Source: Dipteris shenzhenensis
Lineage: Eukaryota
NCBI GenBank assembly: GCA_047967505.1
Contig: CM106538.1
DNA: 64,000 nucleotides
Direction: 5' to 3' (one strand)
Shown: piece by piece, positions 28,300 through 64,000 of the stretch
Position numbering within the stretch: the first letter of the stretch is position 1
Layout: each line of letters opens with the position of its first letter
The notes under the pieces: generated by a model
What the model was told of the DNA's origin: nothing
Database searches by the model: none
Seen by the model: only the letters and a program-made list of their open reading frames with translations
Translations under genes and position numbers: made by a program

Positions 28300-28884
28300 A
28301 ACACCTATTTCATTAATTTTGGACTTTTTGTGTTGTTTTTGGACGAAGCCCAAAAATCCTTCCCAAATGAAAACTTTACTTTGTGAAAATATCCTTCCCA
28401 AATCAAAATTTTACTTTCTGAAAATATTCTTCCCAAATCAAAAGTTCACTTTGTGGCACTATCATATTCACATAAAAATATTGTTTTTTCAATCTATACT
28501 TTTGCACCAACATGCAAGAATTTTAAATAATCCTATATTAGAAATTCTAGCTATATCTAAGTTATTTGTTAATTTATTTATTTTTAATATTTTTCCTTGA
28601 CGTGATAAATTTATAAATCCATGAAAGGAGACTTATATATTTCATGAAAATAACATTGTCACTCGCAATATGCACGAAATTTTTAAAACTTTTAATAAAT
28701 AGAAAAAAGACATGATGCCATAAGACCCAAGTTTTGTATTGAACCAAAGAGGTATAATAGCAATTATAGCTATTATTATATGATTACATTGAGAGACGTT
28801 GCTCTCAACTAGAGTCTTTATATCCAAAATGATATAGATTGAACATATGTTTACAATTTAAATTGTTGCTCTTAAAGAGCCTCA

Positions 28885-29300
28885 CTTCGTGCCATCTGCA
28901 TAATTTGACTCCCCATTGTCTTATTGCTCAATGTCATGACAGTCCCTTGCCAGGTGCCATCTGCATAATTTGACTCCCACTTGTCTTGCCAAGCCTTGCC
29001 CCTTGGGTGCATTGACTCCCCATTGTCTTATTGCTCAATGTGATAGTCCCTTACCAGGTGCCATTTGCATTAACTCCCTATTGTCTTGCCAAGCCTTGAC
29101 CCTTGGGTGACATCCAGTGCAAAATACAAGTGCCATCTGCATTAACTCCCACAAGTTATCTTGCCAAGCCTTGCCCCTTGGGTGCATTGACTCCCCATTG
29201 TCTTATTGCTCAATGTGATGGTCCCTTGCCAGGTGCCATCTGCATTAACTCCCTATTGTCTTGGCAAGCCTTGACCCTTGGGTGACATCCAGTGCATATT
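28885..29300. repeat. Short nested tandem repeats downstream of the transposase
   Basis: Recurrent GTGCCATCTGCAT, GACTCCCCATTGTCTT and GCCAAGCCTTG blocks. A ~140-bp duplicated segment at ~28981 and ~29157. Confidence 0.85.
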
Positions 29301-29412
29301 TTGACTCTCATTTGACATAGGAGGTGATGACTCTGATTATAATTGTCTTAGATTGGCTTCTTGCCTAGTACCCAAATAAAATCCTTCAATGGCCTTCAAT
29401 ACAAAGCTTTAA

Positions 29413-32400
29413 TCATGGACATTCTTCATTTGCACTGTCTCCTTCTACTTCTTCCATGGCGAGCATCCTTAAAAATTCGTGTATATGCAAAATAGTTTGC
29501 TGTGTAGTTTTTATTTTTCCTTCTACCTGATATCCCATGCGCTTCTTTGATTTCTTTGCCCTTGAATGCCAAGACACTATGATTGTCTCCGTCGAAACTT
29601 GAGAGACCGCTTCATCATTTAGGACCCACTCCTTCATTATACAATTAGTATACAATGTGTTGTTATCCATATTCTCCTTCCCGCCCTTTGGCTGATACCA
29701 TACCGCTGTAAATGTTGTAGCTCTCCCTTGGTCATCTCTTTGCACATCAACTACTTTTGCAACCCAAAACTTCACATTCTCATATTCATCATCCGATGGC
29801 CGAACCATAACAAAACAATCGACCTCTATATCTACTTGTGGCATAAACTCTCTCTTCTTTGGTCCACAATATGGATGTGGGAGTAATGATACAAATTCAT
29901 TTTCAAAGACTGGAGCTCGGCGCAAATCGTTATGAACATTTGGCCAAAACATATTGCATTCTTCGTTGACATCCTTTGAGCCTCGCATTCTCTCAAGGTC
30001 CTTTATTAAATTTCGTGTCTTGTTAATTACAGTGGTAGTGTGTTCTCTCCAAGTAGGCTTCGAATCAGGATATCTCTGGAGCATTTCCTCTTTGTATGTA
30101 ATAAATGCTTTTAGTCCTTCTATTTCACAGTTAGACCTCTCATTGAATTCTTGTATAGGAGCCCATGTTGGATACCTTTCGTTGCTGGGAATTGAAGTTA
30201 AGAGACTGTAAGGTTCTTTAGGTTCCCATTTTGTATCATGAGAATACTGTTGCCATTGCATTACGGGTTTTTCATCTTAAAAAAAAAAACGAAAGTAGTG
30301 TGGATTGGTATGACCTGTCAATGTATCACCACCCGTTTGTATGAAAGGTAGAATGAAGCTCTTTCAATCATACATTCTTTCGAGCCTCTCACATACTGTA
30401 CTTTCCTTACGACCACCAACTTGCCTGCCACATCTTCTTACCAAGTCATCTACTGTCTCCATATCCTTGCATTTAAGCTCCCTTGAGACTGTGCTAAAAA
30501 CCTGATCGATATCCTCATGTGTATGCCCAACATATAAAAATCCACATTCAACCTCATTGAAGATTCGATGAGCAACTAGCATGCAGCAGAATGCAAACAT
30601 GAGTACATTCTTATTTTCTCGCCAGCATTTATCAGCTTGTATTCTCAAAGTCAGTGGTAGGCGACCTTTTTCTGCATGTACATTGCAAATTGCCTTCATA
30701 ATAGATGTTACAACTTGATTGGTATCATGTAGATGCAAGGAATCAATCCATATATCTGCAAAGAACTTAATTCCATGCACTAACACTCCACATAGATGTG
30801 TCTTTAGAAAGTGCTTTCCTGTGGCAACAAAACGAGGCAATGTTGTTGTATTCTGATCCATGCCATCTACAATAAGGCACATGTAGTCATCGGGATGTGA
30901 AATCGCTTGCTCCTTCCAAAATGCATATTTTTGTCTGGAATGTCGAATAAGGTCATGATGAGATTTTCGGTTTTTTTTGTATAATTCCCTTTGATTTGGA
31001 CATGTTGCACTCTCAATCGCTCGCTTTAAATCATCACAGGCTTTGCACTTTGACATTTTTTGCCTCCTTGGGATTTTAACATATCCAAAGTTCTTCTTCC
31101 AAAGAGTATACAAAGTATGAGAAGAAGCTACAGCATCCCCTCTTTGCCTTTGCTTTTCTGCAATAGAGTCAAATACTTCGAGCTTTGTCAAGCCCATTGG
31201 AAGGTGCATTTCAGTGATCACGTCACCGTTAGGGAGTTTGGTAGATATATGGGGTTGAGGTAAAGCATTTTCATGTATGAAGTCTTGCAAAATTGCTACT
31301 GCCCTGACAGTTGAGATTCTTGATTTGGACCTTCCTCTATTACCGTGAATGCTAAATTTTTGCCGCCCTTTGCCTTGGTGACTAAATCCCAATATGTACC
31401 ATGGGATAATCCAGTAATATTGCGATATGCCTTATTGCAAATCCTTTTTTCTATTTACGAGAGGTTTTACCTTTTGTCTTGAACTTAGCCTTTTATTGCC
31501 ATTCTGAAGAAAGCAAGAGAGACTTGTGAGAAGGTATTCATTTCTTTCGCTTCCTCTTCTTTGCCACACGTGTCCTCTACATTCCCTGATGTCTGCAAGA
31601 TCAATGAAGCGCATACATATTCGCTTGCAACATAGATATCCCAATGCATTTAACATGTTCTCCTCCTTCATTACTCTCTTCCTCTTTGGTTGCTTTTGTG
31701 GATCTGCTTGGATTCACTTTCTCTTCATGCATATGTATGACCGTTTTCGTTCCTCGTGCACGTTGTTATCTGTATTTATGCACTTATTCTCCTCACATTT
31801 GTTTGTAACCAAGCATCCATGATTGGTCGTTGCATCCTTGTCCATATCACAATCAGAGTTAAATATTGAATAATCCTCTGTTGATCTCATCCTCGTTTTT
31901 AACATACTCTTAGGACCATTCAATGAATTCAATATTCTACGAGAGTATTAAGAACCTTGAAACTCTTCCACTCCTGAGAGAACATCACTCATTGGGACAT
32001 CTTGCATGGCTTTCACAAATCCACAAGCTTGATTGACACTAGGTTTGTTAATATGCATGAACTCATCCACACTTGACAAGGCATCGCTATTGAAACCTTT
32101 GCCCTTCTCACTGTGCAAGAATTCATCCACCCCAGATAAGGCTTCGCTTCTAAAATCATTTTGTTTCTCGGAACCAATGAACTCATCCACTCCAGATAAG
32201 ATGTCACTTCTATAATTGAGTATATTGAAATCATCCACATTTGAAGTGATAGAGCTTGGCACATGGGCACGCTTTTTAGGTCCTTTGATATTGTAGTATA
32301 CCTTATCTTTATCATTGAAAACAATGTGTCTCTTTCTCATGTTTAAAAATTGCATGCTCCATCTCATATTCTTGCCTACCTCATAGTAGGGATCACATAA

Positions 32401-32916
32401 GGATGTTATGTTATCAACCATACCATCATCAGTGACTTTTAGAATCCTCATCTGTGCAAATGACCATTGCTCCACTTGTTCAAATCCCAATACTTCACCT
32501 TCTGCTACAGTCTTATTTGCAAATGATCTCATTTGTAAAATGTCCCCTATAGTAAAATCCAAGGTGGTGCACTTTGTATTCTTGATAATGTCTGTTGCAT
32601 AAGTCTCATCTTTGTCCCATGCTATAAATGATTTGTTGGATGTATTGTAGGGCATAATATCTCCAAGTGTTTCCATATCTCCACATTTATACTTTAGCTC
32701 AACATGTGCGCTAAGAATCTTTGATACAGTAACTGCCACCTTATCTTCGCCAAGTCTTCGAAAGTGGCAAACTGAATTGGGATCACTATCATGGATTGTA
32801 GCAAATGCAACTACTTCTCTTTTGCTACATAAAATCACATCCATCCCTGGAACAAAATCTATAGCCATCTCCTTTGTGAGAGTCCTTCGCAAGCAAGCTG
32901 CAGTAGCAACAATCAC
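29413..32916 (-). pseudogene. Large DDD/E transposase, Sola1-like, one reading frame with 5 premature stops
   Basis: Five ORF-track pieces share one frame (stops at 31948, 31714, 31432, 30364, 30277). CxxC-H region (KCKACDDLK...HH), then IVDGMDQ, QADKCWRENKN and VGHTHEDIDQVFS. C-terminal FWVAKVV...AVWY beta domain. Confidence 0.75.
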
Positions 32917-32989
32917 ATAAATATTAGTCTCTTTTTAATAATCTACTCATTTATTATAATTTTTAATTAGTACTTAATTTATTGGTGGG

Positions 32990-35900
32990 AGAAGTTATCC
33001 AATCAAGTACTCATCAGATGGACATGCCAAGTTATCCTTTGCATGGTTGATCGAGCATTAAATACTATTTTTGCTCTAGTGTCATGCACATTCGTAAAAA
33101 AACACGAGCCTGCTAGGTATGTTATCCAATCAAGCACTTATGGGATGGGTGTGCCACTTTACATATAAGTCAATTCCACCTATTTGAAGGTGTGTGCAAA
33201 GTATTGTGCCCATCAGATATGCTTTGCATTGTCGATCAAGCATAAAACACTGTTTTTGCCTTAGTGTCATGCACAACCATGAAAAAACACGGTCCTAAGT
33301 GTGTTAATCAAACAAAAACTTATTGGATGGGGGCTCCACTTTTCATGCAAGTCCGTTTCAACTAGGTTGAGATGCATGCAAAGTATTGTCACCATTGGAT
33401 ATGCTCTGCATGGTCGATTACACATTATACAATGTTCTTCCCATAGTGATATGCACATCTGCAAAAAAAACACGCCCTTAGGTATGTTATCTAACCAAGT
33501 ACTACTTATCGGATGGGTGTGCCTCTTTGACAAAATCTCAATACCACCTAGGTTAAGGCGTAGGAAAAGTATTTTTCCCATCGGATATGCTTTGCATGGT
33601 CGATCGAGCATTAAATACTATTTTTGCTCTAGTATCATGCACATCCGTAAAAAAAACACGCTGCTAGGTGTGTTATCCGATCAACTACTTATGCGATGGG
33701 AATGCCACTTTGCATGTAAGTCAATTCCACCTGGTTGAAGGTGTGTGTAAAGTATTGTGCCCATCGGATATGCTTTGCATTGTGGATCAAGCATAAAACA
33801 CTGTTTTTGCCTTAGTGTCATGCACAACCATATAAAAACACAGCCCTAGGTGTGTTATTCAAACAAGTACTTATCGGATGGGGGCTCCACTTTGCACACA
33901 AGTCCGTTTCAACTACGTTGATGTGCATGCAAAGTATTATCACCATAGGATATGATTTGCATGGTCGATCATGCATTATACACCATTTTTTCCCGAGTGA
34001 TATGCACATCCGTAAAAAAACATGCCCTTAGGTGTGTTATCTGACCAAGTACTTATCAGATGGGTGTGCCTCTATGAGAACATTCCAATACCACCTAGGT
34101 TGAGGTGTACAAAAAGTGTTGTGCCCATCGGATATCCTTTGCATGATCGATCGAGCAATAAATACTATTTTTGCTCTAGTGTCATGCACATCCATAAAAA
34201 ACAAACTGCTAGGTATGTTATTCGATCAAGCACTTATGGGATGGGAGTGCCACTTTGCATGTAAGTCAATTCCACCTAGTTGAAGGTGTGTGCAAAGTAT
34301 TGTGCCCATCGGATATGCTTTGCATTGTCGATTAAGCATAAAACAATGTTTTTGCCTTAGTGTCATGCACAACCATGAAAAAACATCGTCCTAGGTGTGT
34401 TAATCAAAAAGTACTTATCGGATGGGGGCTCCACTTTGCACGCAAGTCCGTTTCAACTACAAAAAGTGTTGTGCCCATCGGATATCCTTTGCATGGTCGA
34501 TCAAGCATTAAATACTATTTTTGTTCTAGTGTCATGCACATCCGTAAAAAAACACACTGCTAGGTATGTTATCCGATCAAGTACTTATGGGATGGGCGTT
34601 CTGCTTTGCATGTAAGTCAATTCCACCTAGTTTAAGGTGTGTGCAAAGTATTGTGCCCATCGGATATGCTTTGCATTGTCGATCAAGCATAAAACACCGT
34701 TTTTGCCTTAGTGTCATGCACAACCATGAAAAAACACGATCCTAGGTGTGTTATTCAAACAAGTACTTATCGGATGGGGGCTCCAGTTTGCACGCAAGTC
34801 CGTTTCAACTACGTTGAGGTGCATGCAAAGTATTGTCACCATCAGATATGCTTTACATGGTCGATCATGCCTTATACACCATTTTTTCTCTAGTGATATG
34901 CACATCCGCAAAAAAACACGCCCTTAGGTGTGTTATTTGACCAAGTGCTTATCGGATGGGTGTGCCTCTTTGAAAACATTTCAATACCACCTAGGTTGAG
35001 GCGTACGAAAAGTGTTGTGCCCATCAGATATCCTTTGCATGATCGATCGAGCAATAAATACTATTTTTACTCGTGTCATGCACATCCGTGAAAAAACACG
35101 CTGCTAGGTATGTTATCCGATCAAGCACTTATGGTATGGAAGTGCCAATTTGCATGTAAGTGAATTCCACCTAGTTGAAGGTGTGTGCAAAGTATTGTGC
35201 CCATCGGATATGCTTTGCATTGTCGATCAAGCATAAAACACCGTTTTTGCCTTAGTGTCATGCACAACCATGAAAAAACACGGTCCTAGGTGTGTTATTC
35301 AAACAAGTACTTATCGGATGGGGGCTCCACTTTGCACGCAAGTCCATTTCAACTACGTTGAGGTGCATGCAAAGTATTGTCACCATCGGATATGCTTTGC
35401 ATGGTCGATCACGCCTTATACACCATTTTTTCTCTAGTGATATGCACATCCGCAAAAAAACACGCCCTTAGGTGTGTTATCTGACCAAGTGCTTATCAGA
35501 TGGGTGTGCCTCTTTGAGAACATTTCAATACCACCTAGGTTGAGGCGTACGAAAAGTGTTGTGCCCATCAGATATCCTTTGCATGATCGATCGAGCAATA
35601 AATACTATTTTTACTCGTGTCATGCACATCCGTAAAAAAACACGCTGCTAGGTATGTTATCCGATCAAGCACTTATGGGATGGGAGTGCCACTTTGCATG
35701 TAAGTCAATTCCACCTAGTTGAAGGTGTGTGCAAAGTATTATGCCCATCGGATATGCTTTGCATTGTCGATCTAGCATAAGACACCGTTTTTGCCTTAGT
35801 GTCATGCACAACCATGAAAAAACATGGTCCTAAGTCTGTTAATCAAACAAGTACTTATCGGATGGGGGCTCCAGTTTGCACGCAAGTCCGTTTCAACTAG

Positions 35901-38716
35901 GTTGAGATGCGTACAAAGTATTGTCACCATCGGATATGCTTTGCATGCCGATTACGCATTATACAACGTTTTTCCCTTAGTGATATGCACATCCACAAAA
36001 AAACATGCCCTTAGGTATGTTATCTAACCAAGTACTTATTGGATGGGTGTGCCTCTTTGAGAAAATTTCAATACCACCTAGGTTAAGGTGTATTGTGCCC
36101 ATCGGATATGCTTTGCATGGTCGATCAAGCATTAAATACCATTTTTACCTTAGTATCATGCACATCCATAAAAAAACATGGTCAAGTACTTATGCGATGG
36201 GAATGCCACTTTGCATGTAAGTTAATTCCACCTAGTTGAAGGTGTGTGCAAAGTATTGTGCCCATTGGATATGCTTTGCATTGTCTATCAAGCATAAAAC
36301 ATCGTTTTTGCCTTAGTGTCAAACAAGTACTGTGCCCATCAAATATGCTTTGCATTGTCGATCAAGCATAAAACACCGTTTTTACTTTAGTGTCATGCAC
36401 AACCATATAAAACACGGCCGTAGGTGTGTTATTCAAATAAGTACTTATCGGATGGGGGCTCCACTTTGCATGCAAGTCTGTTTCAACTACGTTGAGGTGC
36501 GTGCAAAGTATTATCACCATCGGATATGCTTTGCATGGTCGATCACGCAGTATACACCATTTTTTCCCTAGTGATATGCACATCCGCAAAAAAACACGCC
36601 CTTAGGTGTGTTATCTGACCAAGTACTTATCGGATGGGTGTGCCTCTTTGAGAACATTTCAATACCACCTAGCTTGCAGTGTAGGAAAAGTGTTGTGCCC
36701 ATCAGATATCCTTTGCATGGTCGATCGAGCATTAAATACTATTTTTGCTCTAGTGTTATGCACATCCGTAAAAAAAACATGCTGCTAGGTATGTTATCCG
36801 ATCAAGCACTTATGGGATGGGTGTGCCACTTTGCATGTAAGTCAATTCCACCTAGTTGAAGGTGTGTGCAAAGTATTGTGCCCATCGGATATGCTTTGCA
36901 TTGTTGATCAAGCATAAAACACCGTTTTTGCCTTAGTGTCATGCACAACCATGAAAAAACACGGTCCTAAGTGTGTTAATCAAACAAGTACTTATCGGAT
37001 GGGGCATCCAATTTGCACGCAAGTCTGTTTTAACTAGGTTGAGATGCATGCAAAGTATTGTCACCATCGGATATGCTTTGCATGGTCGAGTACGCATTAT
37101 ACAACGTTTTTCCCGTAGTGATATGCACATCCACAAAAAAAGATGCCCTTAGGTATGTTATCTGACCAAGTACTTATCGGATGGGTGTTCCTCTTTGAGA
37201 ACATTTTAATACCACCTAGATTAAGGTATAGGAAAAGTATTGTGCCCATCGGATATGCTTTGCATGGTCGATCGAGCATTAAATACCATTTTTGCCTTAG
37301 TGTCATGCACATCCGTAAAAAACATGCTGCTAGGTGTGTTATCCGATCAAGTACTTATGCATTGGGAATGCCACTTTGCATGTAAGTCAATTCCACCTAG
37401 TTGAAGGTGTGTGCAAAGTATTGTGCCCATCGGAAATGATTTGCATTGTCGATCAAGCATAAAACACCATTTTTGCCTTTGTGTCGTGCACAACCATATA
37501 AAAACACGACTGTAGGCATGTTATTCAAATAAGTACTTATCGGATGGGGGCTCCAATTTGCGCTCAAGTCTGTTTCAACTATGTTGAGGTGCGTGCAAAG
37601 TATTGTCACCATCAGATATGCTTTGCATGGTCGATCACGCATTATACACCATTTTTTCCTTAGTGATATGGACATCCGCAAAAAAACACGCCCTTAGGTG
37701 TGTTATCTGACCAAGTACTTATCGGATGGGTGTGCCTCTTTGAGAACATTTCAATACCACCTAGGTTGAGGCATAAGAAAAGTGTTGTGCCCATCGGATA
37801 TCCTTTGCATGGTCGATCGAGCATTAAATACTATTTTTGCTCGTGTCATGCACATCCGTAAAAAAACACGTTGCTAGGTATGTTATCCGTTCAAGCACTT
37901 ATGGGATGGGCGTGCCACTTTTCATGTAAGCCAATTCCACCTAGTTGAAGGTGTGTGCAAAGTATTGTGCCCATCAGATATGCTTTGCATTGTCGAACAA
38001 GCATTAAACACTGTTTTTAACTTTGTGTCATGCACAACTGTCAAAAAACGCGGTCCTAGATGTGTTATTCGACTAAGTACTTATGGGATGGGCATGCCAT
38101 TTTGCATGTAAATCAATAATACCTAGGTTGAGATGTGTGCAAAGTATTGTGATGATCGCATATGCGTTGCATTGTCGATTAAGCATAAATCAGTGTTTTT
38201 GCCTTAGTGTCATGGACAACAACCAATAAAAAACATGGTCCTAGGTGTGATATTCTAAAAAGTACTTATTGAATGGGCATTCCACTGTGCATGGAATACC
38301 ATACCACCGCTTTTGAGGCACGTGCACAGTATTGTGCCCATCGGATATGCTTTACATGGTAGATTGAGTATTAAATACCGTTTTTGGCCTTGGTGTCATG
38401 TACAACCTTCAAAAAATAGGATCGTAGGTGTATTTTTCAAACAAGTACTTATCGGATGGGGATGCCACTTTGCACACAAGTCAATACTGACTAGGTTGAG
38501 GAACGTGCAAAGTCTTGTGTCCATTGGATATGCTTTGCATAGTCGATCTGACATTATACACCATTTTGTTCCTAGTGTTATGCACAATCATCATAAAAAT
38601 ACGTTTGGAGGTTTTTTATGCAAACAAGTACTTATGGGATGGGTGCACCACTTTGTATGCAAGTCAATACGACCTAGGTTGAGGCATGTACAAAGTTTTG
38701 TGCCCATCGGAGAAAT
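32990..38716. repeat. Satellite of ~182-bp monomers in ~544-bp trimeric higher-order repeats (~30 monomers)
   Basis: Monomer starts TAGGT(A/G)TGTTAT at 34561 (A), 34743 (B), 34925 (C) and 35105 (A). Same-class monomers are far more alike than neighbours. Confidence 0.95.
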
Positions 38717-39399
38717 GTAGATACGATAATATTAGAAAATTCTCGGTATGTGTATATGTGTGTGTGTGTGGCAAACAATTTTGATACAACAAAGTAAACA
38801 CCTAGTGCACAAATTATGCACTTCATATCTTGAGTAAATAAGCTTGTTGATGAGGATAAATATGGCCTTGAATAAAAGCACAGTTGTTGTATGACCACAA
38901 TAGGATCGCTTTGACACCTATGATTTTGCCCACATGTAAGTTTGTAAATAGTATAAAAAATCATATAATAATATATTAATAGTTTGCAAATGTGTATAGC
39001 AAGTGAGTAATGGGAAGTGGAAGTGGGAGTGAGGAGGGAGGAGTGGAATGGGAGAGGGAAGTAATAGGGGTGTATGATAATAAGTATAAAAAATAGTATA
39101 ATAAAATATTAATAGTTTTCAAATGGCAAGTGAGTAATGGGAAGTGGAAGTGAGAGTGGGGAGGGAAGAATGGAATGGGAGAGGGGAAGGTAATAGGGGA
39201 ATAGGATAATAAGGGAGTGAAATGAGTGAGGGGAGTTAATAGGGGATGAAAAAGAGGAGGGTGAGATGGGGAAATATGGGATTTTGGGAAATGGGAGGAG
39301 TATGGGACGTGGTGGAAATGTGGGATGGGAGTGGTGGCAATGGGGGAGGAAGAAGAAATGGATGGGGGGAGGGCTAATGGAAGATTGGGATGAGGGATG

Positions 39400-39535
39400 G
39401 GGGTCCAATGGGAGAGGGGGAGTAATGGGAGCCAATCGGAGAGGGGATAAATGAAAAGCCAATAGGAGAGAGGGGAGGAATGGAAAGCCAATAGGAGAGG
39501 AGGAGGAAAACCTAAATTTTCTTATATATAGTCTT
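39400..39535 (+). promoter_or_regulatory. Putative Pol II promoter: four phased CCAAT boxes and a TATA box
   Basis: CCAAT at 39405, 39432, 39459 and 39488; TATATATA at 39523-39530; donor-like CAG|GTACTT at 39655. Confidence 0.55.
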
Positions 39536-39699
39536 CCTTCTTCATTCATTCTCCCCTGCTTTCATTCATTGAAGCAAGAAAGCAAGGACGATCAAGAAAG
39601 CAAGGAAGGAAGAGCAAGAAAGCAAGAAAGAGCAAACTTACAAACTTTTTCCAGGTACTTGCAAATTTTTTTGATTAATTCTTTATCTAGATTTTTTTA

Positions 39700-42135: not shown

Positions 42136-42190
<55 letters not shown>

Positions 42191-42244
42191 GGAATGAAAC
42201 TTCTCTGCTAGAAGAGTAGGGAGGGAAAGAAAGAGAGGGAGGGA

Positions 42245-52969: not shown

Positions 52970-55900
52970 CAATAGAGGGAGAAGAAATGGATGAAGTCAA
53001 TATGGAGGCACTCCCTTCTACTTCAACAATGCAACCACCTCTAAATTTGATTGAAGAATCCGATGAGCACAAGAGATTTAAAGACACCATGGAAAAGTAG
53101 AATGACCCCAAACATAGAATACAAGCTATGACAGAGACCCATTCTGCAAATTTAGCTGAATTGGATAAAATGGAGAGCTCATTTGAAGTTAGGACCATTT
53201 TGAAACGAGAACATCAGTATTTGAGCTTTGGTAGAGAGGAGGTTTCAATCCTCTCCAATCCTTTAAAAGAGGTTAATGACAATGTTATCTTGGCCATTCT
53301 TAGGTAACGTTTGTTTATTTGTTGCTACTTCAATGAGCTAACATTTGTTTATTTATTCATAGTGTAGTTATATATCAGTTTCCTAGTGCGGAATACAAAT
53401 CAATTCTATGAGCTAACGTTTGTTTATTTATTGGTGCAGTGTAGTTATTTCTCAGCTTCCTAGTGCAGTGCAGCATTGTGTCTACATGCTCGATGCTCTC
53501 CTTTCTTCTATTCTTAGCTCTCCTCAAAAGACTATAGAAGATGTCTGTACCTGGTTAAGCCCTTTGAATTTAGATGGGGTGTGAGTCATCTTAATGCCTT
53601 ATCATGAGGCGTAAGTATCAACTCTAACCTTATTTTTACTATTTCTTTGGCAAGTTTGTGTAAAACAATAATCATTTTTATTCTGGTTGTGTAGCTCACA
53701 TTGGAGTCTGATCATCTGGGACCTTGAACTCAACCGTTTGTGGTTTGTGAATTCAATGGAAGGCTATCATGCCAACTCCCCAAGGTAATTATTCTCTTAA
53801 TATTTTTGATACTTTCTTATTTTGTATCTTATGATCATGACATATTAATATATTTAATATGTCATGATGGACAGTGCTGTATATCTGCTAGTATTTGCTG
53901 TCAAAACAACCACGGAGCAACAAGATCAAGTAGAATTCAAAAGACGTCTGCCAGTGGAGCAAAAAGATGGGCACAGCCGTGGGTGGAGAGTTGTCTACAA
54001 CTGCATGTTGTTTCTTAGAGAGATTTTTGATTTGGAGTTACCAGTCAAAATGGAATCATATATAGAAGCCGATCTGCTAGCATTTCGAGCTGAGAGTATT
54101 CAGTGTCTAATTACTACCATTGGGAAACAACCTAAAAATATGACTACATTGCAACATGTATAAAACCTTATCTTTATACTTGTATGCTTGTTCAAGCCTT
54201 TAATTGGGATGTGTAAATCTCATAACTTTTTTACATTTTGCTCCAAGAGGAGAAGAGACCGAGTCTAATGAAAGCATGCTATCTTTATACTTCTATGATT
54301 ATTTAAACCTTTATTTTTATTTAGGATGTGTAAATCTCATAACTTTTTAAATTTTTTCTCCAAGAGGAGGAGAGACTCACTCTAATGAAAGCATGTATGA
54401 AACCTTACTTTTTAAATTTTTGCTCCAAGTGGAGGAGAGATTCACTCTAATGAAAGCATGTATGAAACCTTATCTGCTTGTTTAAGCCTTTATTTGGGAT
54501 GTGTACATCGCATAACTTTTTTATATTTTTATAGCAGAAGGAGGATGTAGAAGACATAGCAAGTGAAGAAGAATACGATGTAGACTACTCTCTCAATAAG
54601 ATGAGTCATGAAAATATAAATCTATTGGAGCAGATTGGAAGTTCATTCACCGCTATGTTGTTAATGCGACAACAACCTCATTTTTTTGAATTTGGTGAAG
54701 AAGAGATTTCAATCCTCTTAAATCCTAAGAAAGAGGTTAATGTCAAAGTCATTACAACCATCCTCAGGTTTGATGCAGCCTTTTCCTTGGCTTTATACTT
54801 TGCTTATTTTGATTAAATCCAAGAAGCTAATACTTTTTTTTAAAATATAGTAATGTTATAGCAAATTTTTCACAAAATATACAAAGCATTTCATATATGC
54901 TCGATCCTCGTATTTCAGAAGTGCTTAGCAACAAAGAAGACACCATAGAGGATGTTTGCAAGTGGTTGAAGCACGTTCCTATGAATGATGCACGAGTTAT
55001 TTTTACAGTATATTATGAGAAGTAAGCATCAAACCCTACTTGTTTTTTCTATTGCATTGCTAGAATTGTCTCAAACATAATAATTATTCTTTATTGATAA
55101 TGCAGCTCACATTGGAGTCTGGTAGTCATGGACATCTTTGCGAAGAAGTGCTTCTTTGCCAACTCAATGACATCTGTCCATGGCACTGTGTTAGAGTAAG
55201 TATAGACTACACTTCTTGTCACTTCTTGACATGTAGATTGATATGCAATGCACATATTCACTATTGTTATATGTTTTGATGTGCAGATCAGCTCGAAAGT
55301 TAGTAGGTGCTATTGACACAATAATGCGGCAATGTGACTTGGCACAACAAATAGAGTATATAACATGTTAGGTATCACATCAAGAGAATAGCCACATCTA
55401 TAATTGTGGACTCATTGTGGATGGAGGGTGGGCTACAATTGCTTTTTGGTACTTGGTCAAATTTTTGAGATACAAAATGACACCACACTGTCAACATATA
55501 TGGATTTGCATCTCTATGCATTTATAACATGTACCATCCGAGCAATCATTAAGGGTGACATTATGGACCCTCCCACAAGGCAAATAGATAATGGCTCAGA
55601 GGAGTGCGAAATGAATGCCGTCAAAGAGTCAAAGGGGATAGAAGACCTCAACTCTACAAACATGGCTTCATTGGAAGAATTGGGAAGCTCTTTTAATGTT
55701 AGGGTTATGATTCAACATAGACCTCCGTATCTTGAATTTGGGGGAGAGGAGATTTCAATCCTCTCTAGAGCTTCAAATGAGGTCAATAACAACGTTATGA
55801 TGGCCATTCTCAGGTTTGATACAAACTTTTTCTCTGCTTGATAATTCAATATTTTGATTAAATCTAATAAGCTAATATTCATTTATTTGTTGGTGCAGTA

Positions 55901-56745
55901 TAGTTATCTCACGATTTGGTAGAGCCGTACAAAACCATGTGTATATGTTGGATTCCCTTCTTTCTCCTATACTTAATGATAGCAGAAAGACAATAGCCGA
56001 TGTTTGTAAATGGTTACAGCCTTTACATTTACATGGCGTGCGAGTCCTATTTATGGCATATCACGAGATGTAAGTATCATGGCAACCTTTATTTTCATCT
56101 TATACTGGCAACATTGTGTTAAATAATAATGGTTCTTAATTATTCGTGTAGGGAACATTGGAGTCTGGTGGTTTGGGACCTTGAAGACAACTATTGTTGG
56201 TTTGTTAACTCAATTGCAGGCTTTCATGGCTCAGTTCAAACGTAAGTATTCTATTAATCTGTTGTTACTTCTATATTATGTACCTTATGTAATAGACACA
56301 CTAAGTTTTTTTAATATGTCATGATGAGCAAGTCGATTGAGAAGTTGGTATCTGCTATCAAAGAAACAGGACAGTACAAAGATTCAGTAGACTTCTAAAA
56401 GCATTTAGTAGTAGAGCAGGAAGATGGGCATAGTTGTGGGTGGAGAGTTGCCTACAACTGCATGTTGATTTTCAATGAAATTTTCTCACTTAAGCCATAG
56501 ATCTCATCGGAAGACTCTTTGGAGCTCAAATATTCAGAGGAGGATATACAATTGTTTAGGGCTGAAATCATTCGAGACCTAATTGTTGCCATTAGAATAC
56601 AACGTGCAACTGAAGCAATATCAGAGCTTGCATTTAAGGAAGAGGAGATTGAGTCTACTGTGAAAGCACTGCACACTACAGAAGAAGTAGAGACTCAGTG
56701 TACACCTACAGCACCACAGCCTCCACTGGAAGCATCAGAAGAGTT
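52970..56745 (+). pseudogene. Intron-containing gene with three tandem Ulp1/peptidase C48 (SUMO protease-like) modules
   Basis: HWSL(I/V)(I/V)xD at 53699, 55110 and 56156, each followed by F(V/A)NS. QKDGHSRGWRV (~53960), ...CGWRVGYN (~55415) and QEDGHSCGWRVAYN (56417). Repeated FGxEE(V/I)SIL exon and equivalent GT..AG introns. Confidence 0.8.
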
Positions 56746-56747
56746 GC

Positions 56748-58320
56748 TGCTTTGTGGCAACCTTTGCCAGGCAAGGTCGGTGAAGGACTCTTGGATTTTC
56801 GTTGAGCAAGCAACTAGGACAACAATGTTAGGAGCATTCTAGAGAACCCATGTCAAATAGCTGGAGCAAACAATGCACCAGGATAATAAAATATTCTTGG
56901 CGGTGCTCAATAAAATAAGGATAGGTACACAAATAGAAGAAGACATCGACAACATGAACGATTGTCACTTCAAAACACCAGCACATAAGAATGACATATG
57001 GCACTTGTTCTACACTAACAAAGCAAAGGACATACACAACGTCGCCGTCTTTGAGAGTCTCAAAGGCATTCCACACATTCTAAATGCAAATGACGTCAAG
57101 CACAGAGCTTGCAGCAAAACAATAAAAATACCTGAAGACCCCAGGAAAATAGTTGGGCTGCACCGCCAACTTCAGCTTAAACCAGGAATGATCATAGAGA
57201 TTTGTTGAAGGAACCTAGATATCAACGATGGCATCATGAATGGGGCTAATGGTCTATTCAAGGACTCCGACATGACAAAGAAACCATCGATAGTCTGAGT
57301 AGAATTTAGTGACAAGAAAGTAGGAGAGAGAGCGCATTGCGAATTCAAAAGTCTATACGACAAGAATATGCCAACAACAAGGACATCGATGCTACGCGTC
57401 GCCTGCGAGATCCAAATTGGCAACAACAACCTAAACACAATAACTAGGAAACAATTCTTGATCCAACCGGCAGCGGGAAGAACGATCCATCATTCACAGG
57501 GGCTAACATTGGAAGCCCTCGCACTTGATCTGATGGGAATAAGGACGCATGGACTAGTATACATGGCAATGACAAGGGTGAACGACCCCAGAAGTGATAC
57601 TCTTAACAAAGCTAGATAGCAAGCAGGTAAAAGTAGATGGACAAGTCTTACACGAGCTCTCGAGATTGCGGGCGGAGAGCATATAGGAGTTTAAACAACA
57701 AGATTTCAACAAAAACAAAGATGGGGTCAAAACTCTGCAAAGCTTGAACACGCAATCATTTCAGCTTCATAAAGACAACATAATGGCATCTGAAAGCATA
57801 CTCATCACGACCATCCTGTGCTTCTAAGAAACGCACTCAAAAAAACACCACACAATGAGTTTGCCATTTCCATATGAAAGCTCAACGTCAGATGGGTTCA
57901 AGGATGGGTTAGGCATCGCAACCTTCTATGGAGAGGAGTTAGAACTGAGCAAGTGCAAAGAAACCTTCGAGGATGGATGCGAGTGCTTACTTCTGGTCTT
58001 ACTAACAAAAAGAAAAGAAAAGCTGGCGGTTCTAAACACATACAAATCACAAAAAACAAAAACAACATTGCTTCAGAGCATTGTCGAAATGCTAGGAGAA
58101 ATACCAAAAGGGGCGACGACATATGTTGTGGGTGACTTCAACATTGACTACAATTTGAACAAATCACCAACAATAAGATTAAAACAACTATTCAAATACC
58201 ATAAGAAAGCACTATAATACACGGCTCTACTATTGATCACATTTAGACAAACTCAAATCAACAGCACAAAATGTACAGAACAAACTACATTATTGATCCG
58301 ACCATTCGCTAACAATAGAT
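56748..58320 (+). pseudogene. C-terminal half of a PIF1-family helicase followed by an AP-endonuclease-like (EEP) domain, Helentron type
   Basis: CGNLCQ (motif III-like), QDNKIFLAVLNKIRIG, NLDINDGIMNG, RKQFLIQPAAGRTIHHSQGLTL and GLVYMAMTRV. EN motifs SLNTQS, LCFxETH, VVGDFNID and TIDHIxTN. Confidence 0.85.
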
Positions 58321-58896
58321 GCATAAAAAAGCAAGGGGGGCAAGGATTTCGGGTTGAACCCACAACAGAGAATCTGGCAAGCCCATTGAAGAACCTTCAA
58401 CCCTTTTTTTTTTTTTGTGTGTGTAAACGTTTGGTTTAATAAAAGACAACATAAAGTTCTTGAAGTTTGATTTAATGAAAGAGAACTTAAAGTTTGAGAT
58501 TAATAAATGAAACCTTAAATTTTAATAAAGGTAATCTAAGCTAATTGTTCGTCTTCAACGTCCAATAGTGAAAGCTTCTTCTACTTCCTAACATTTGGGC
58601 TTGCATCTCAAAGGAGTAAGGCTGCTGGACCTGGAGTAGCCTGTGTAGTCAGTGCAAGGACTAAAGCCTCAGGGCGTGCCCCTAGAGATTGAAATTTAAA
58701 CCAACGATGTGTTGCAAGAGCCAAGCACACAGGGCACGACAAATCGTGAGGTGTGTAAGCTTTGTGCATATTGGTCGCTCCAACTGGCTATAGAGGAGAA
58801 AGTCCACGGAAGCGTGTGCAGTGATGGCAAGACTTCCTCTTTGCCAAAAACTGTAGTGCTTTTGGAGTAGACTCAGTATCCTCTTCCTTAAATGCA

Positions 58897-60400
58897 TGGT
58901 AAGTAGAGCAGGCAAAGTTCTTTGTAATGGTTTTCAGGTTCTTCCACTTTATTGTAAATATTGAATCGTATTATTCTGTCTCTTTTTCTTTTCTTGTTGT
59001 GGCCGGCCTTGGCTATGTCTTGGCTCTTCGCAAATGAGGCCAAACAAAGGTTCTGCAATGCTATCCACCTATTGGTGTATTTTTTAGTTATGTCGTCAAA
59101 GAACATGTCGGAGCTCTTTGGATGGAGCATCTCTAATTGGGCGCGTCACTTCAGCAAGAGCGTCATGTCCTCCAATGGGTTTGTGTTTATGTATATGAAT
59201 TCTCTCGTGGAAGCAGTCAGCGGCAGAGAAAGATATAAGTAGATGGCTTGTTGTGCGCTTATGTGTTGCGTGTTTTCTCGATCTTGCATACTCGCTCATC
59301 GACAGGCGCGCTACCTTCACGGCTTTGCTTGTCTCCTTGTCAATCTTTGTCATGTAAGACGTCTAGTACGAAGCTGCTCCGTCGGGCTTCAAAACGAATT
59401 GGATGTCGGCATTTGCTCCCCACATCTTTGTCCGAACGGGATTGAAATTGTTTGTGTTGATGTCTTTTGGGGCTCTCCTGTTAAACACTTTTGGTTGGCA
59501 GAGGCTGCTTCTATTAGCAAGTTTGTATTCTTGCTCAAACATTGACAGTGCCTGGAAGAATTCGTCAATTGTAAGAGAGGTGATTGATGCGTCTTGCAAA
59601 GCTTTCCTGAAGTTTTGCCTGTGCACTGTCTCGTCTGCGTCAGTTGGTAGGGGCCTGAGAATATTGGTTTCCCACAAAGGTGGTCGTAGGAGCCCGAACC
59701 GACAATCTCTTTTTTTCTTTCGGCATGTTTGCCTGTGCCTATGTGTTTGCAAGTCCTTATGATCAATGTGGAGCTCGTCGGTGTTTGGGGAGATGTACTT
59801 ATCAATGAATTACAGGCCATGGTCATGGTGACTCCCTCTGTTTTGGAATTCTGTGACGAAGAAGAAGAAATTCATTATTGTGCCTACAATTCTTTCATCC
59901 TGCCGCAACAACGTTTTCAGCGCTCGGAATTTGTGGACATAATATTGGGGTGTGTGCAACATTTCATGCAGTGCACGCACAATCAAGGTGGGGCGCACCA
60001 ATCCACTGATGTAGTTGTGCTTGTACTGGATACGCCTTTTGATTGCGACTGCGACTGTGGCACTGTCAACAACAATGAAGCGAGGAAGGACATGTTGAAC
60101 CCTGTCAACATCAGCGAAAACATTGACGCAGTTGTCCTTCGTATGTTAGTTCCCTGAACTGCGCAAAAGGTATCCTAATTGAAATAAGCCGTTGCTCGAC
60201 TTTATTCACGTGAGATTTAGCCTCTCGGACATTTGCATCTTGTCTTTTGAGAACCTGGGTTTCTTGTTGCTGCGTAACTGATCGTAGCAATGCGAGCAAA
60301 CCGGTGGCTCGATGCTGGTTGATGTTAGTTTGGATAGGAAAGTCAAGCATCCACAAAAATTGCATGCGAAGCTTGGTGTGTCATTGATTTTTTTTTGTAA
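58897..60400 (-). pseudogene. Helentron/Helitron2-type Rep (HUH) region, internally deleted
   Basis: VLPRF...AIKRRIQYKHNYISGLVRP N-terminal domain, HUH motif VTEFQNRGSHHDHG (~59815-59865), QTHRHRQTC, NADIQFVL...AASYxTSYMTK (59345-59380), and RIIRFNIYN...LLYLP. Confidence 0.88.
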
Positions 60401-60454
60401 AGGCGATGTGCCTTTGCAATGGTCCTTTTACGTTTTGCACTATCCTTCCCAGTT

Positions 60455-61186
60455 CTAGAGGGGATAGGCGCCTGAGTTTTGCCGATGACAATCAATTCTT
60501 GGTTTGCTTGCCTGCTTGCTGTTGTACATGTCCGCGCTTGCTCGATACATCGCAGCTTTCAATTTGTAGATCTTATTGCATGTAGCCTTGAAATTGTGCG
60601 CAGTTTTCGTATGGGTTTCCTCGTACGCTCCTACTATGTCCTTTGCTAGTGCGTCTAAATTTTCCTGGAGAAGATGCCTCAAGTATACTTCGTCCTCTGT
60701 TGACCAGACGTTGTATGCCCTCTTTTTTTGGATGTGTAGGAGGGGCATGATTGTGTAACGAGAATGTAATTGCTCGTTGCTTTGACGGCCATTTCTTGCT
60801 CGCAAATCGAGAATTTGTTTCAATGAATGTCCATTGCGCAGGAGGATCATGAATGAATCCTGCAGGATTTCTTGCAAGCATCCAACGCAGCGGCATACTA
60901 GCTCGATGGGCTTTGCAAAGTGTTGGAGCGCATGGGAGACGCCATGTCGTTGCCCTTCGTGCGCATCGCTACCGTGCACCAGGTGGCTTCCAGCGCCTGA
61001 TGCCACTTCCTCCCTTTTGTTTTGGCTGATCTTGTGCAGTCGGATCGTTTCCAAAATCGTGGCGTGGATGTGTGGAGGATAAAGTGCGACCAAACAACAA
61101 GCCAGGTCAGTGTTTGATGGATGGCTCATTATGAACTCTTCATCTAGCCTCACATTGTATGATGCCAGATCCATTCCGGATTCCAT
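60455..61186 (-). CDS. Hypothetical protein with a Myb/SANT-like segment, possibly the N-terminal part of the Rep gene
   Basis: 243-aa ORF containing KKRAYNVWSTEDEVYLRHLL...NKIYKLK, on the same strand and immediately upstream of Rep. Confidence 0.4.
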   Translation of the reverse strand: MESGMDLASYNVRLDEEFIMSHPSNTDLACCLVALYPPHIHATILETIRLHKISQNKREEVASGAGSHLVHGSDAHEGQRHGVSHALQHFAKPIELVCRCVGCLQEILQDSFMILLRNGHSLKQILDLRARNGRQSNEQLHSRYTIMPLLHIQKKRAYNVWSTEDEVYLRHLLQENLDALAKDIVGAYEETHTKTAHNFKATCNKIYKLKAAMYRASADMYNSKQASKPRIDCHRQNSGAYPL

Positions 61187-62356
61187 TTTGGCTGCTCTTC
61201 ACCTCGAGCCTTTTGTAGGTGCGAGCAAGAAATTTCTAACGCTGCAAGGTTTGTGTTTGCAGTGGTGCAGTCTTCACGGACAGATGCGGGGCAAAGAGTG
61301 GAAGACTCTACAGAAAATTTTTTTCCAATGCAGATGGGAGAGGCAGTGTTTGAGGCTCTTATGAACGCAAGGGGCAGCTGGGTGTGATTGCATCCACATG
61401 ATGATCACTGAATGTCGCAGCACAACACCTGACAAACAATCTACGAGCCTGTTTCCCAAAGGGATTGTAGCTTTGATGGGTCGGTCATTATTTCCAGAAA
61501 ATCCTTGCTTGTCTTTCGGCGACAGTTGAGGAGGAAGCCTTTTTTGCAATGGAGTTTATTGAGAGGGTGACATGCAAGCAAAGGCGATGTTGCTACGCGA
61601 GAAAGCATTCCCAGGAGCTTGTGCGCTTATCGGGGACGTCCATTTTTTTTTGGAGACCATTGAGAGGAAACTGGAAGAAAGAAACGGCATGAGAAAACCT
61701 CAAAGGACAAGGAGCTACACGAGGATATTGCAATGGAGATTCTCACGATGGCGATGGGAATTGCAGGCGACGATGCTTCAGGAGGAAGTATTGTTAAGAG
61801 GTTGTGCGATTACCGGGAAGGGCATGGAGGGCACTTGTATTTGTGGCCACCATTGAAACGAAACTCGAAGAAAGAAATAGCTTGTGATAAGTTTAAAGGA
61901 TGGGTCATGTCTTTTGTTGCGAGACTACTATAAGGTGCTACAAGAATTATCAAAATTTAAAGTAGATGCAATGGAGGCAAGCATAGGACATTCTATATGC
62001 ACCCAACCAAAAAAAATTATATAATGCACGTACATTTTACTTTTACTTATGGAAGCACGTTCTCTGCGGGCAATGTGCCTTTGCGGAAATCAATTTATAC
62101 AAAATCCAATGTGAACAAACCAATTTATACAACATATGTACATTTTTTTTAAAATTTATGGAAGTACTTACAATGGGGCGCCACTCAAAGGACTGGGTGG
62201 GGAATGTACAATGTGATGTCAAAACACAATGTTTCTACAAAAGCAAGAAACTAACTAGTAGCTGCTGTGCAAGAGAATAGGGGAATGCAAGCTCGATAAA
62301 TAAAGAGTGCAAAGGGGCATGTACAATGAGTGGCCGCATGAGTAAAATCTTTCTGT

Positions 62357-63483
62357 CTAGGCTACCTTAGTGAACGATGTCACGAAGCCGAAGCTATTGA
62401 TTGTGAACTCCCCAAAGGGCCGCTTCTCTGAAAGCATAGTACCGGGTTGCAACAACACTACGGGCATGAAACTCCAGAAATAGGAAATGCAACCCAAGCA
62501 CGTCGTCCACATGTGGCCCTCGAACCTGCACAATGACTCGGTTGCCATCACAGAGAACAACACACCCTTTCAAGGAAGGAACTTGGGAAATGGCTTGGGC
62601 TCCATCGTAGCTATAGCAGTAGGGGTGTGCTGGGTCTCTGCTCACGCGTGTGCCGGTACTCAATAAGGGGGTTATTCAAGGAGCTGATTAAATGGAGGAC
62701 ACCAACTACTTGCAAGAGAAGGAGTTTTGATTAAAAAATAACAGCGGGGCCAATAACATGCGTATACGCACAATTGTTGTAATGTTCACCTTTTTTTCAT
62801 ATCCCAACTGTGAGACCTGACGTGTGAATGCCTCCTACAGAGTCGAATGAAGATTCCCCTTCGGAAGTGCTCTGATAATGGTGAAGTCAAAAACACCTAT
62901 TGCGTGTCGTGCTTGCATGTATGAAATATTTTTCGCAACATACATTACGACGCCCTCCGTAATGAATTCTTCCACCAAGCGCGCAAGGGTGTGCCTCCTA
63001 TTGGCTATAAAAGACAATTGGTAGGTGCGAGGGGAGGTAGGTTAGCAGATGTTGTTGTGCTATCTACCTTATTGAATAACCACATTAGAGTAAAGGAAAG
63101 AAAGCGGCTTACCATAGCGCGGTCCTCGAGGTTTGGCCCATCAACAATGATGACCTGCTCTGCTGGCAGCCCATCTAGGTACACCTTCACAATGACGAAG
63201 GTGAGGGTGTGTCGATAACTGAAGTGAATGGTATGTGCATGTTTTCCATTTGATTAGCCGCCCATGGTGCATACCATTTGATGACATTATCTGGCACGAA
63301 CGAAATCTCTCCATCGAATGGTTTCTCCTTCAAAATAGTGGTGGTTGCATCTACGGGCAGGGAAAAAGATGATGTGCCTCCCTTGCCGAATGCACGTGCT
63401 TTGTATGTACCATACTTTGCCAAAACCCTACCCTTGAAGGCAAAACGGTGTGGCAAACGAAGGTATATTGGTCCTACTTCCAT
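62357..63483 (-). pseudogene. Possible RPA-like OB-fold ssDNA-binding gene remnant
   Basis: FKGRVLAKY...GKGG..FSLPVDATTTI and VVLCDGNRVIVQV beta-strand patterns in consecutive minus-strand ORFs, next to a Helitron-like gene. Confidence 0.35.
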
Positions 63484-64000
63484 CCTCCATTACATGTATG
63501 GCTTGGTGATGTTGTGTGGTGCTAGCAACGGGCTCAGCTATGCTCTTTAATTTGGCGGGTACAACGTTAGAGCTAGTTGGGAGAATACATGAAGAAAAGT
63601 TATGAGAAAATGTTGTTCGTTCTTGTTGGCATTACGCAACTTGTACTACAAAACCAATTCTTGTTATACAATTCACTCCGCTTTATGCGAAGCCTCTTCA
63701 AAGTTTTTATTGGTTTTTTGTCTTTAAAAAAGTGCAAGTGTCGTTTCCACAGTGCATGTGCTCAACATTTCTATCTTGTGCTACAAGAAAACACACTTGG
63801 AGCGTGCATAAGTTGTTTGAGAACTGACGCGCGTGAGCAACTGGTTGGTAGGGGTCGCAATAATGCAAAGGGGGTGGTGCTATTATGAACTTGGAAAAAA
63901 AACATTATTCTTGCAAGAATTCTATTTCAAAGGACTGGGTTGCAGCAATAGGATTCAAAAAACCAAGTAAGATAGTTTGGAGTTTCAGTTATTCACTTTT

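Follow-up and report, generated by a model that had tools for sequence, protein, structure and literature searches.

Giant DNA transposons that carry accessory genes beside their transposases were described in algae in 2025, and they provide the closest comparison for the locus examined here. Ectocarpus Sola1-1_Ec32 is 21.5 kb long and has, on the strand opposite its transposase, a gene for a 1104-aa protein with ParB-like and DNA-methyltransferase (MTase) parts; in the giant Ectocarpus families, as far as the available part of the report extends, transposases are often pseudogenised and nested, unrelated transposable elements (TEs) are often fixed among copies (PMC12477816). The red-algal (Bostrychia) giant Plavaka elements (EnSpm) are 17-19 kb long and carry the accessory genes PAG1-3, where inverted-repeat tandem arrays adjoin a ParB-like accessory gene (PAG3) that InterPro does not detect (bioRxiv 10.1101/2025.02.11.637652, available sections). 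Sola transposons in general are summarised as having 4-bp target site duplications (TSDs) and terminal inverted repeats (TIRs) of 11-1124 bp, with some elements longer than 15 kb (PMC10741241) and some that capture foreign genes (Bao et al. 2009 as summarised in PMC10741241 and PMC3627910). Here, a 64,000-nt stretch of contig CM106538.1 from Dipteris shenzhenensis (assembly GCA_047967505.1), which is called the window throughout, was analysed, and a block of comparable layout was located at positions 28300-56747. With slightly better than even confidence, this block is read as one decaying copy of a giant Sola-like transposon that has received a private Copia insertion and that lies against an unrelated, dead and rearranged Helentron.

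The order of modules agrees with an initial annotation of the window: a minus-strand transposase (29413-32868) is followed by a satellite, a purine-rich tract, a long plus-strand open reading frame (ORF) that begins at 44184 and is called ORF2, three plus-strand Ulp1-like units and pieces of a Helentron (Table 1). In particular, the three minus-strand ORFs of the transposase form a single frame of about 1150 codons, from an ATG at 32868 to a stop at 29413, that contains five internal stops (three TAA and two TGA) and zero frameshifts. When the stops are read through as X, the frame matches Pfam family PF25273 (DUF7869) with an E of 4.2e-50 and 170.5 bits (cut-off 26) over profile positions 5-191 of 192; the uninterrupted ORF at 30364-31431 matches the same family with an E of 7.5e-44 and contains the motifs DGMDQ, IQADKC and HTHEDID, in a D...D...D/E-like arrangement. 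Judged by these motifs, the transposase is probably Sola-like. Its neighbours in the Atlas are DUF7869 clusters of animals, while a literature search for DUF7869 and a metagenome scan with the transposase ORF each returned no match. As regards its size, the neighbouring Atlas clusters are just 454-717 aa long; outside DUF7869, the frame has an N-terminal region of about 330 residues with SGVDEF repeats and a C-terminal extension of about 290 residues (29413-30276), neither of which matches a family. Further, the fractions of 31-letter words from 27800-33000 that are present in two public runs, X1 and X2, are 0.48 and 0.47, which would match a difference of about 2.3% across the whole of that stretch; among the listed runs containing it, none is an RNA run. 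Two of the runs that contain parts of the window are labelled as algae metagenomes.

The right-hand part of the block is present in several copies. Contigs of three public runs (X1, X2 and X3) were compared with the window stretch 44001-64000, where the records, including those on a nested Copia element (Copia-2), numbered 369/17,770 for X1, 184 for X2 and 46 for X3. Contigs from all three runs cover 44001-56747, with differences from the window of about 1-4.5% among the listed pieces, and up to four to five distinct X1 contigs lie over single ORF2 positions. Because several distinct contigs cover the ORF2-Ulp1 part, 44001-56747 is a multi-copy family, and its other members keep ORF2 open. In the window copy, the first part of ORF2 contains seven in-frame stops up to 46223. 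At five of the seven (45255, 45606, 45804, 45888 and 46014), the contigs of X1, X2 and X3 have a C where the window has a T, resulting in sense codons, and a 2-nt indel at 46216 in other copies restores the frame so that a sixth stop is bypassed. An alternative genetic code was rejected as the source of the in-frame stops, because TAA, TGA and TAG are mixed and other copies carry sense codons. The differences between the window and the contigs across 44001-57000 are strongly directional: in X1, the window has A/T where the contig has G/C 170 times, and the reverse occurs 72 times. The five ORF2 nonsense codons arose through this G/C to A/T-type bias in the window copy, and the bias fits deamination in a copy that has been silenced.

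Copia-2 is a young insertion and is private to the window copy. Its two long terminal repeats (LTRs; 46363-46533 and 51684-51854) have one mismatch in 171 positions (99.4% identical), and it has a tRNA-Met-type primer-binding site, a TSD of AATAG/AACAG, and Pfam matches to Retrotran_gag_2, rve and RVT_2. Moreover, contigs of X1 (753 nt) and X2 (1299 nt) contain the empty site, where 46355 is joined to 51852. Across this empty site, the second part of ORF2 is in frame with the first, yielding a gene of about 1072 codons in total.

ORF2 had been labelled a ParB/MTase-like gene on the basis of its general shape and of a DGQHW motif in its first part, which was taken as ParB-like; Pfam, NCBIfam and the PDB give this label no support. 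In particular, ORF2 matches no Pfam or NCBIfam family up to an E of 10, its parts have no PDB relative by sequence (phmmer) or by profile, and no MTase domain of the PF01555 type was detected in 45609-46223 or 51854-52882 by Pfam, NCBIfam or the PDB, whether each part was used alone or as a profile together with P0001. This protein (269 aa; E 6.2e-13, 28% identity) is the sole match to ORF2 among 1.84 billion representative proteins. Two AlphaFold models of ORF2 parts had predicted local distance difference test (pLDDT) values of 41.9 and 47.0, too poor for a fold search, and the Atlas neighbours of the N-terminal part were all sub-threshold (0.79). A word-based protein search at near lengths with the second part found no relative, and a profile search of genome contigs with ORF2 found no match.

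The three units downstream of ORF2 have pairwise nucleotide identities of 70-76% and are likely Ulp1-like at the level of their motifs. A His-exon profile of the three units matched 13 PDB entries, all 13 of which are clan-CE proteases; the best is SENP2 (E 0.016), chlamydial Dub1/2 and yeast Ulp1 are included, and the alignment falls on HWSL...DSM. To that extent the initial annotation of three Ulp1 genes stands, while its counterpart in Pfam is absent: Peptidase_C48 (PF02902) was detected neither in three frames of 52883-56862 read through with X nor in single ORFs. PDB searches with the exon-2 and Cys-exon profiles found no match, and a word-based protein search at longer lengths with a unit's ORF found no relative. 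The position of the catalytic Asp is occupied by Asn in all three units. The Cys exon of unit 3 reads EQEDGHSCGW, with both Gln and Cys present; that of unit 2 reads HCGW, where Cys is present and the alignment shows no Gln; in unit 1, Arg replaces Cys. Contigs of X1, X2 and X3 all cover the Ulp1-like units, and other copies are without 87 nt at 53060-53146 and 54 nt at 55551-55604 (the latter replaced by GAT). These two differences are multiples of three, which suggests coding constraint, and the reading frame may run from ORF2 into the Ulp1-like units. At the end of the block stands a 122-nt unit (56626-56747), of which other copies have tandem repeats.

Between the transposase and ORF2, the satellite has a higher-order period of about 545 bp (three monomers). 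All 13 window occurrences of the inverted-repeat motif ATGCT-N12-16-AGCAT fall inside the satellite, and the earlier description of the satellite as palindromic is therefore fair for part of its monomers. A part of the monomer about 50 nt long has weak similarity (75-84%) to a group of inverted repeats that lies beyond the block, at 5206-5767. In the purine-rich tract, G-rich sequence occupies about 39690-41760 (the GC of the 40001-42000 bin is 0.665), and (AG)n-rich sequence follows at 41774-43054. Within 39690-41760, the strand is strongly G-rich, with a GC skew of about 0.5, and is built of 44-103-nt units, each with G-runs and a GC-rich, palindrome-like core (CTGGCGGCCGCAGCCGCCAGCC).

The left edge of the block coincides with a truncated LTR of an older Copia element, Copia-1. 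The 5′ LTR of Copia-1 is 653 bp long (23481-24133), preceded by GTGGA and followed by a tRNA-Met-type primer-binding site (TGGTATCAGAGC); its 3′ LTR begins at 28196 and retains 104 of 653 bp, with 89% identity to the 5′ LTR over those 104 nt and a homology that ends exactly at 28299. The 5′ LTR, the primer-binding site and the truncated 3′ LTR place Copia-1 in Ty1/Copia, and its Pfam matches are to integrase-side domains only (Pol_BBD, gag_pre-integrs and SH3_retrovirus). The truncation is real, as had been noticed initially: the LTR bases expected next (GTATAAGGGGGCTCTAGG) have their sole window occurrence at 23585, in the 5′ LTR, and the new end (AACACCTATTTCATTAATTTTGGAC) has its sole occurrence at 28300 when both strands are searched with up to three mismatches. 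No inverted partner of the 28300 end was found within the window by a 10-nt exact search, a 20-nt search with four mismatches or a short-word BLAST of the first 600 nt. With the remainder of the LTR and an inverted end both absent from the window, an insertion here would have to exceed 35.7 kb or to have been rearranged later. The left end contains three 35-bp repeats (28352-28456) and 100-175-bp tandem repeats (28872-29296), which resemble the subterminal repeats of DNA transposons; a metagenome scan with the 23-nt left end found no match.

These modules could also have come together by accident. The main rival is a plain mosaic of three neighbours that have no relationship to one another: the DUF7869 remnant, the satellite with the purine-rich tract, and the ORF2-Ulp1 repeat. 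The LTR cut would then be a deletion breakpoint. This reading is considered somewhat unlikely. It would suit a eukaryotic window that is filled with transposon debris (Gypsy fragments, Copia fragments and the internally deleted Copia-1), where no TIR or TSD delimits any larger unit, where an inversion with deletion is documented 28 kb away, and where a satellite-like motif occurs at 5206-5767, outside the block. However, only some 150 bp separate the start codon of the transposase from the satellite, too little to accommodate a right end of its own; the strand layout, the size of ORF2 and the adjoining inverted-repeat array match the published giant algal elements; and one small contig set, X1, contains both sides of the block. 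An independent DUF7869 element of 4.7 kb that ends before the satellite was also considered and rejected, as no inverted repeat pairs 28300-29400 with 32900-33100.

Several observations weigh against reading 28300-56747 as one copy of a giant transposon. Among the contigs and reads compared, which were placed on 44001-64000, none ties 28300-33015 to 44001 onward, and about 11 kb (33016-44183: satellite, low-complexity and unassigned DNA) lie between them; the covering contigs are short (at most 1.3 kb in the listed pieces), so that the long-range order in other copies is beyond their reach. Neither a TIR, a TSD nor a right end of the block was found within the window; as a result, the 28299/28300 junction could be either the edge of a simple insertion into the LTR or a deletion breakpoint. 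Because the ParB-like and MTase-like identity of ORF2 is unsupported by Pfam, NCBIfam, the PDB and the two AlphaFold models, its resemblance to the published accessory genes is one of position, strand, size and a single motif. Membership in Sola is likewise putative, being drawn from motifs in a translation. Finally, a Helentron remnant could travel with some copies, by analogy with the published giant elements, which often hold fixed, nested foreign TEs.

If 28300-56747 is nevertheless one decaying giant transposon copy, its transposase, satellite and ORF2 would move as one unit. Such an element would have a DDE/D transposase on one strand, an internal inverted-repeat array, a purine-rich tract and, on the opposite strand, a gene of about 1072 codons together with three Ulp1-like units. 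A transposase supplied by an intact copy would cut the element at its ends and paste it elsewhere, and the ORF2 protein would have an accessory function, possibly through binding to the repeat array of its own element and modification of chromatin or SUMO marks. The copy in the window would have entered, or been joined to, the 3′ LTR of the older Copia; later, the young Copia would have inserted, and the copy would now be silenced and mutating, with an excess of G-to-A and C-to-T changes. In another reading, which is unlikely, 28300-56747 is a self-recognising giant Sola-type transposon, where the ORF2 protein, with its ParB-like DGQHW motif and a degenerate methyltransferase-like tail, would bind the 31-monomer inverted-repeat satellite of its own element and would disturb SUMO-dependent silencing through the three Asn-bearing Ulp1-like units. 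If true, the class of algal transposon accessory proteins newly proposed to mark their own DNA would gain a protease arm.

To the right of the block, from about 56741, lies a Helentron that is a dead remnant and ordinary debris; it would once have been a rolling-circle element with a Rep-helicase-endonuclease protein. The Rep frame, read through with X, led to the two closest proteins (1839 and 1845 aa), which contain Helitron_like_N, PIF1 and Exo_endo_phos. On P0002, Pfam places DUF6570 at residues 319-423, Helitron_like_N at 553-714, PIF1 at 1154-1370 and Exo_endo_phos at 1646-1830. DUF6570 and the endonuclease (EN) are reported to be almost exclusive to the Helentron/HLE2 group (PMC11417382). 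The Rep-Pif1-EN composition is apparent by homology only, from the alignment of the pieces to P0002/P0003 (PF14214, PF05970 and PF03372); direct Pfam matches are weak (Helitron_like_N with an E of 0.012, Pif1_2B with an E of 0.0037, and none for EN), and a PDB sequence search with the EN ORF was negative. The RepHel-EN frame is neither intact nor colinear, as it is distributed over five pieces on two strands with stops in every piece (Table 1), and the window is without a counterpart of P0002 residues 414-669 (part of Rep; about 256 residues) and 1054-1303 (the helicase ATPase half; about 250 residues). Placement of the whole gene on the minus strand, as initially annotated, holds for Rep and the linker (58897-60724); tblastn puts the C-terminal half of the helicase and EN (56741-58288) on the plus strand. 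Two further labels do not survive: the 'Myb-like' ORF (60455-61198) overlaps the match to RepHel residues 166-413 and is not a separate gene, and the 'RPA-like' ORFs are supported neither by Pfam in six frames nor by the PDB. Within 60701-64000, no RPA (OB-fold) or SANT/Myb domain was detected by Pfam in six frames, and PDB searches were also negative.

The same region contradicts the earlier statement that no junctions separate the genes, since sharp structural junctions are present at 56747/56748 and 58896/58897, and Copia-2 with its TSD sits inside the long ORF. The Ulp1 block meets the Helentron inside the helicase coding sequence, at LLLCGNLCQARSV, which we take to be helicase motif III; the junction is therefore a rearrangement breakpoint and not an element end. 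An inverted repeat of 45 nt with 87% identity (56629-56673 and 58852-58896) bounds the inverted segment. After EN, this segment contains 563 nt without a match and then, at 58852-58896, the 45-nt arm that copies the beginning of the 122-nt unit in inverted orientation; the array of such units is thus broken after 45 nt, at 58851/58852. A contig of X2 joins 56747 to 58896 on opposite strands. In X1, a joint steps back by 122 nt, and the 122-nt unit recurs in loose ends at 56747. The cover by X2 and X3 beyond 57341 consists of short pieces and X1 has none in 57341-64000, and this cover is not counted for or against a linkage to the Helentron. The simplest history is an inversion of 56748-58896, with breaks between two 122-nt units and inside the helicase and a loss of about 750 nt. 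The inversion and the loss of the helicase ATPase half would have set the Helentron against the Ulp1 block, with no function for the giant element.

These breakpoints bear on the proposal of the initial annotation, where a single element of at least 35.7 kb extends from 28300 past 64000 and includes the Helentron genes as a working or cargo set. Absence of the LTR remainder from the window is compatible with it, in that an insertion would exceed 35.7 kb; so are the published giant algal transposons, which exceed 30 kb and have nested foreign TEs fixed among copies (PMC12477816), and the recurrence of Peptidase_C48, RPA and EN in Helitron-like elements (PMC11417382), both according to the available parts of these reports. 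However, the Helentron protein is scattered over five pieces on both strands, has many stops and lacks about 506 residues; its contact with the Ulp1 block is a breakpoint within the helicase, other copies run past 56747 into more 122-nt units and not into a helicase, and the RPA-like and Myb-like genes are unsupported; overall, a single element of this extent is very unlikely. The idea of a giant cargo element remains plausible for 28300-56747, with its multi-copy ORF2-Ulp1 part and published layout, and fails for the Helentron, which is broken, with two gaps and an inverted half. A hybrid of a DDE transposon with rolling-circle replication is similarly unsupported, as the Helentron is debris and provides no machinery for the element.

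With the inversion undone, 563 nt separate the Ulp1 block from EN, and the two face each other tail to tail. This arrangement would suit a further alternative, in which the ORF2-Ulp1 block, and perhaps the tandem arrays, are owned by the Helentron, forming a Helitron-like element of the DINE-1/HINE type with a captured Ulp1 and an internal satellite. Peptidase_C48 is listed among 20 domains that are stable in Helitron-like elements (PMC11417382), and satellite-like arrays are described in non-autonomous Helentron elements (PMC7492417), as far as the available text of these sources goes. Even so, ownership by the Helentron is highly improbable: no hairpin, Helentron end or short-range inverted repeat was found in 58200-58900, the array of 122-nt units is cut at 58851/58852 in a manner that looks like a break and not a designed joint, and ORF2 is open in other copies whereas the RepHel gene here is wrecked.

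The remaining features of the window lie mostly to the left of the block (Table 1). Within Copia-1, about 950 bp are duplicated in tandem at 24233-25695 (91-95% identity), and a reverse transcriptase domain is undetectable between its integrase part and the C-terminus of pol. An older Copia reverse transcriptase fragment (12718-13188, minus strand) has 71% DNA identity to 50611-51077 (plus strand) in Copia-2 and belongs to a second member of a related Copia lineage. A cluster of mutually inverted repeats about 60-95 nt long, similar to a miniature inverted-repeat transposable element, occupies 5109-5767, and its arms end in ...CACCTATTT; the string CACCTATTT is also placed 2 nt inside the 28300 end. 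The SPRY frame at 19431-21095 is open over 554 codons (E 1.1e-08) and is overlapped by an antisense open frame of 425 codons (19275-20552, minus strand); the locus is the most GC-rich non-repeat part of the window and may contain its only host-like gene.

Table 1. Coordinates of the features of the 64,000-nt window, in order of position, with the strand and the basis or details of each assignment.
Feature	Position	Strand	Basis or details
Gypsy integrase and RNase H fragments	1-378 and 16558-17022		
Copia reverse transcriptase fragment	12441-13188		
SPRY-domain ORF	19431-21095	+	
Copia-1, 4.8 kb, old, internally rearranged	23481-28299	+	LTR pair, sequence read, Pfam
Left end of the block, 3′ of the transposase stop	28300-29412		repeats
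DUF7869 (putatively Sola-like) DDE/D transposase pseudogene	29413-32868	-	Pfam PF25273
Satellite, about 31.6 monomers of 182 bp	33016-38763		5.7 kb
Purine-rich low-complexity tract	38950-43054		
ORF2, first part	44184-46355	+ (opposite transposase)	frame from ATG 44184
Copia-2, nested in ORF2	46363-51854	+	LTRs, TSD, contigs spanning the empty site
ORF2, second part	51852-52882	+	342 codons, stop 52880
Three tandem Ulp1-like units and 122-nt unit	53101-56747	+	
Spans of the Ulp1-like units	about 53101-54163, 54535-55571, 55640-56620	+	intron-like gaps
Inverted segment: Helentron helicase C-half and AP-endonuclease	56748-58896	+	tblastn of P0002/P0003, Pif1 matches
Helentron helicase C-half	56741-57589	+	
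Helentron AP-endonuclease part	57600-58288	+	
P0002 residues 1304-1588	56741-57589	+	tblastn
P0002 residues 1593-1787	57600-58196	+	tblastn
Helentron RepHel N-terminal region, Rep and linker	58897-60724	-	tblastn
P0002 residues 929-1053	59274-58897	-	tblastn
P0002 residues 670-903	59947-59315	-	tblastn
P0002 residues 166-413	60724-59942	-	tblastn
Stretch without domain match, holding the 'RPA-like' ORFs and part of the 'Myb-like' ORF	60725-64000		

If 28300-56747 is confirmed as a unit, it would be a further, structurally different giant cut-and-paste transposon with self-directed accessory genes. It would stand out by an orphan accessory protein, a triplicated Ulp1-like module and a long internal array to which that protein could bind. 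Two wider questions are touched by such elements: the evasion of silencing by very large transposons and the origin of satellites inside mobile DNA.

Compared with Sola1-1_Ec32, the block is likewise very large, would move by cut-and-paste and has an opposite-strand gene for a protein of about 1100 aa (1104 aa versus about 1072 codons); its pseudogenised transposase and nested foreign TE also match the habits of the giant Ectocarpus families, as these are described in the available text. In contrast, the accessory protein of Sola1-1_Ec32 has recognisable ParB-like and MTase domains, neither of which was detected in ORF2, and the available description, which is the sole basis of this comparison, makes no mention of units like the three Ulp1-like ones or of an array like the 5.7-kb satellite (PMC12477816). 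The block and Plavaka have in common an inverted-repeat array beside an accessory gene, negative domain scans for that gene and the idea of binding to the element itself. They differ in their transposases (EnSpm/Plavaka versus DUF7869/Sola-like) and in that Plavaka has three accessory genes with SET, MTase and 2OG-oxygenase, none of which was detected here, while no Ulp1 is reported in the available sections on Plavaka. With Sola as summarised, the block shares a DDE/D-type transposase with D...D...D/E-like motifs; as for the Sola-defining 4-bp TSD and TIRs, the window contains one candidate end (28300) and no inverted partner of it. The Helentron pieces agree with the Helentron/HLE2 group as the available parts of PMC11417382 and PMC4067079 portray it, in that the closest proteins, which are 41-52% identical to the Rep and linker pieces, have DUF6570, Helitron_like_N, PIF1 and the hallmark C-terminal Exo_endo_phos. 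Unlike an intact Helentron, this copy has lost the ATPase half and some of Rep, an inversion divides it, stops occur throughout, and no ends were found; on its 5′ side, recognisable sequence gives out before position 64000. Ulp1/C48 proteases are also borne by KI-MULEs, CACTA, Zisupton and Ginger1 elements. The units here have the same motif order, His...Asp-position...Gln...Cys (HWSL, NS[MI], EQ[EK]DG, SCGW), and would lie inside a DNA transposon; they differ in being three tandem units instead of one, in having Asn for Asp in all three and Arg for Cys in unit 1, and in that PF02902 is not detected. Three features are unreported in the giant algal transposons, to the extent that their descriptions are available: the tripled Ulp1-like module, an array of this size, and an accessory protein so remote from recognisable domains. 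The initial view that the architecture is undescribed has been overtaken by the 2025 algal elements for its Sola, satellite and ParB/MTase-like part. Overall, by analogy of strand layout, ORF2 size, adjoining array and pseudogenised transposase, 28300-56747 most likely fits among these giant algal DNA transposons.

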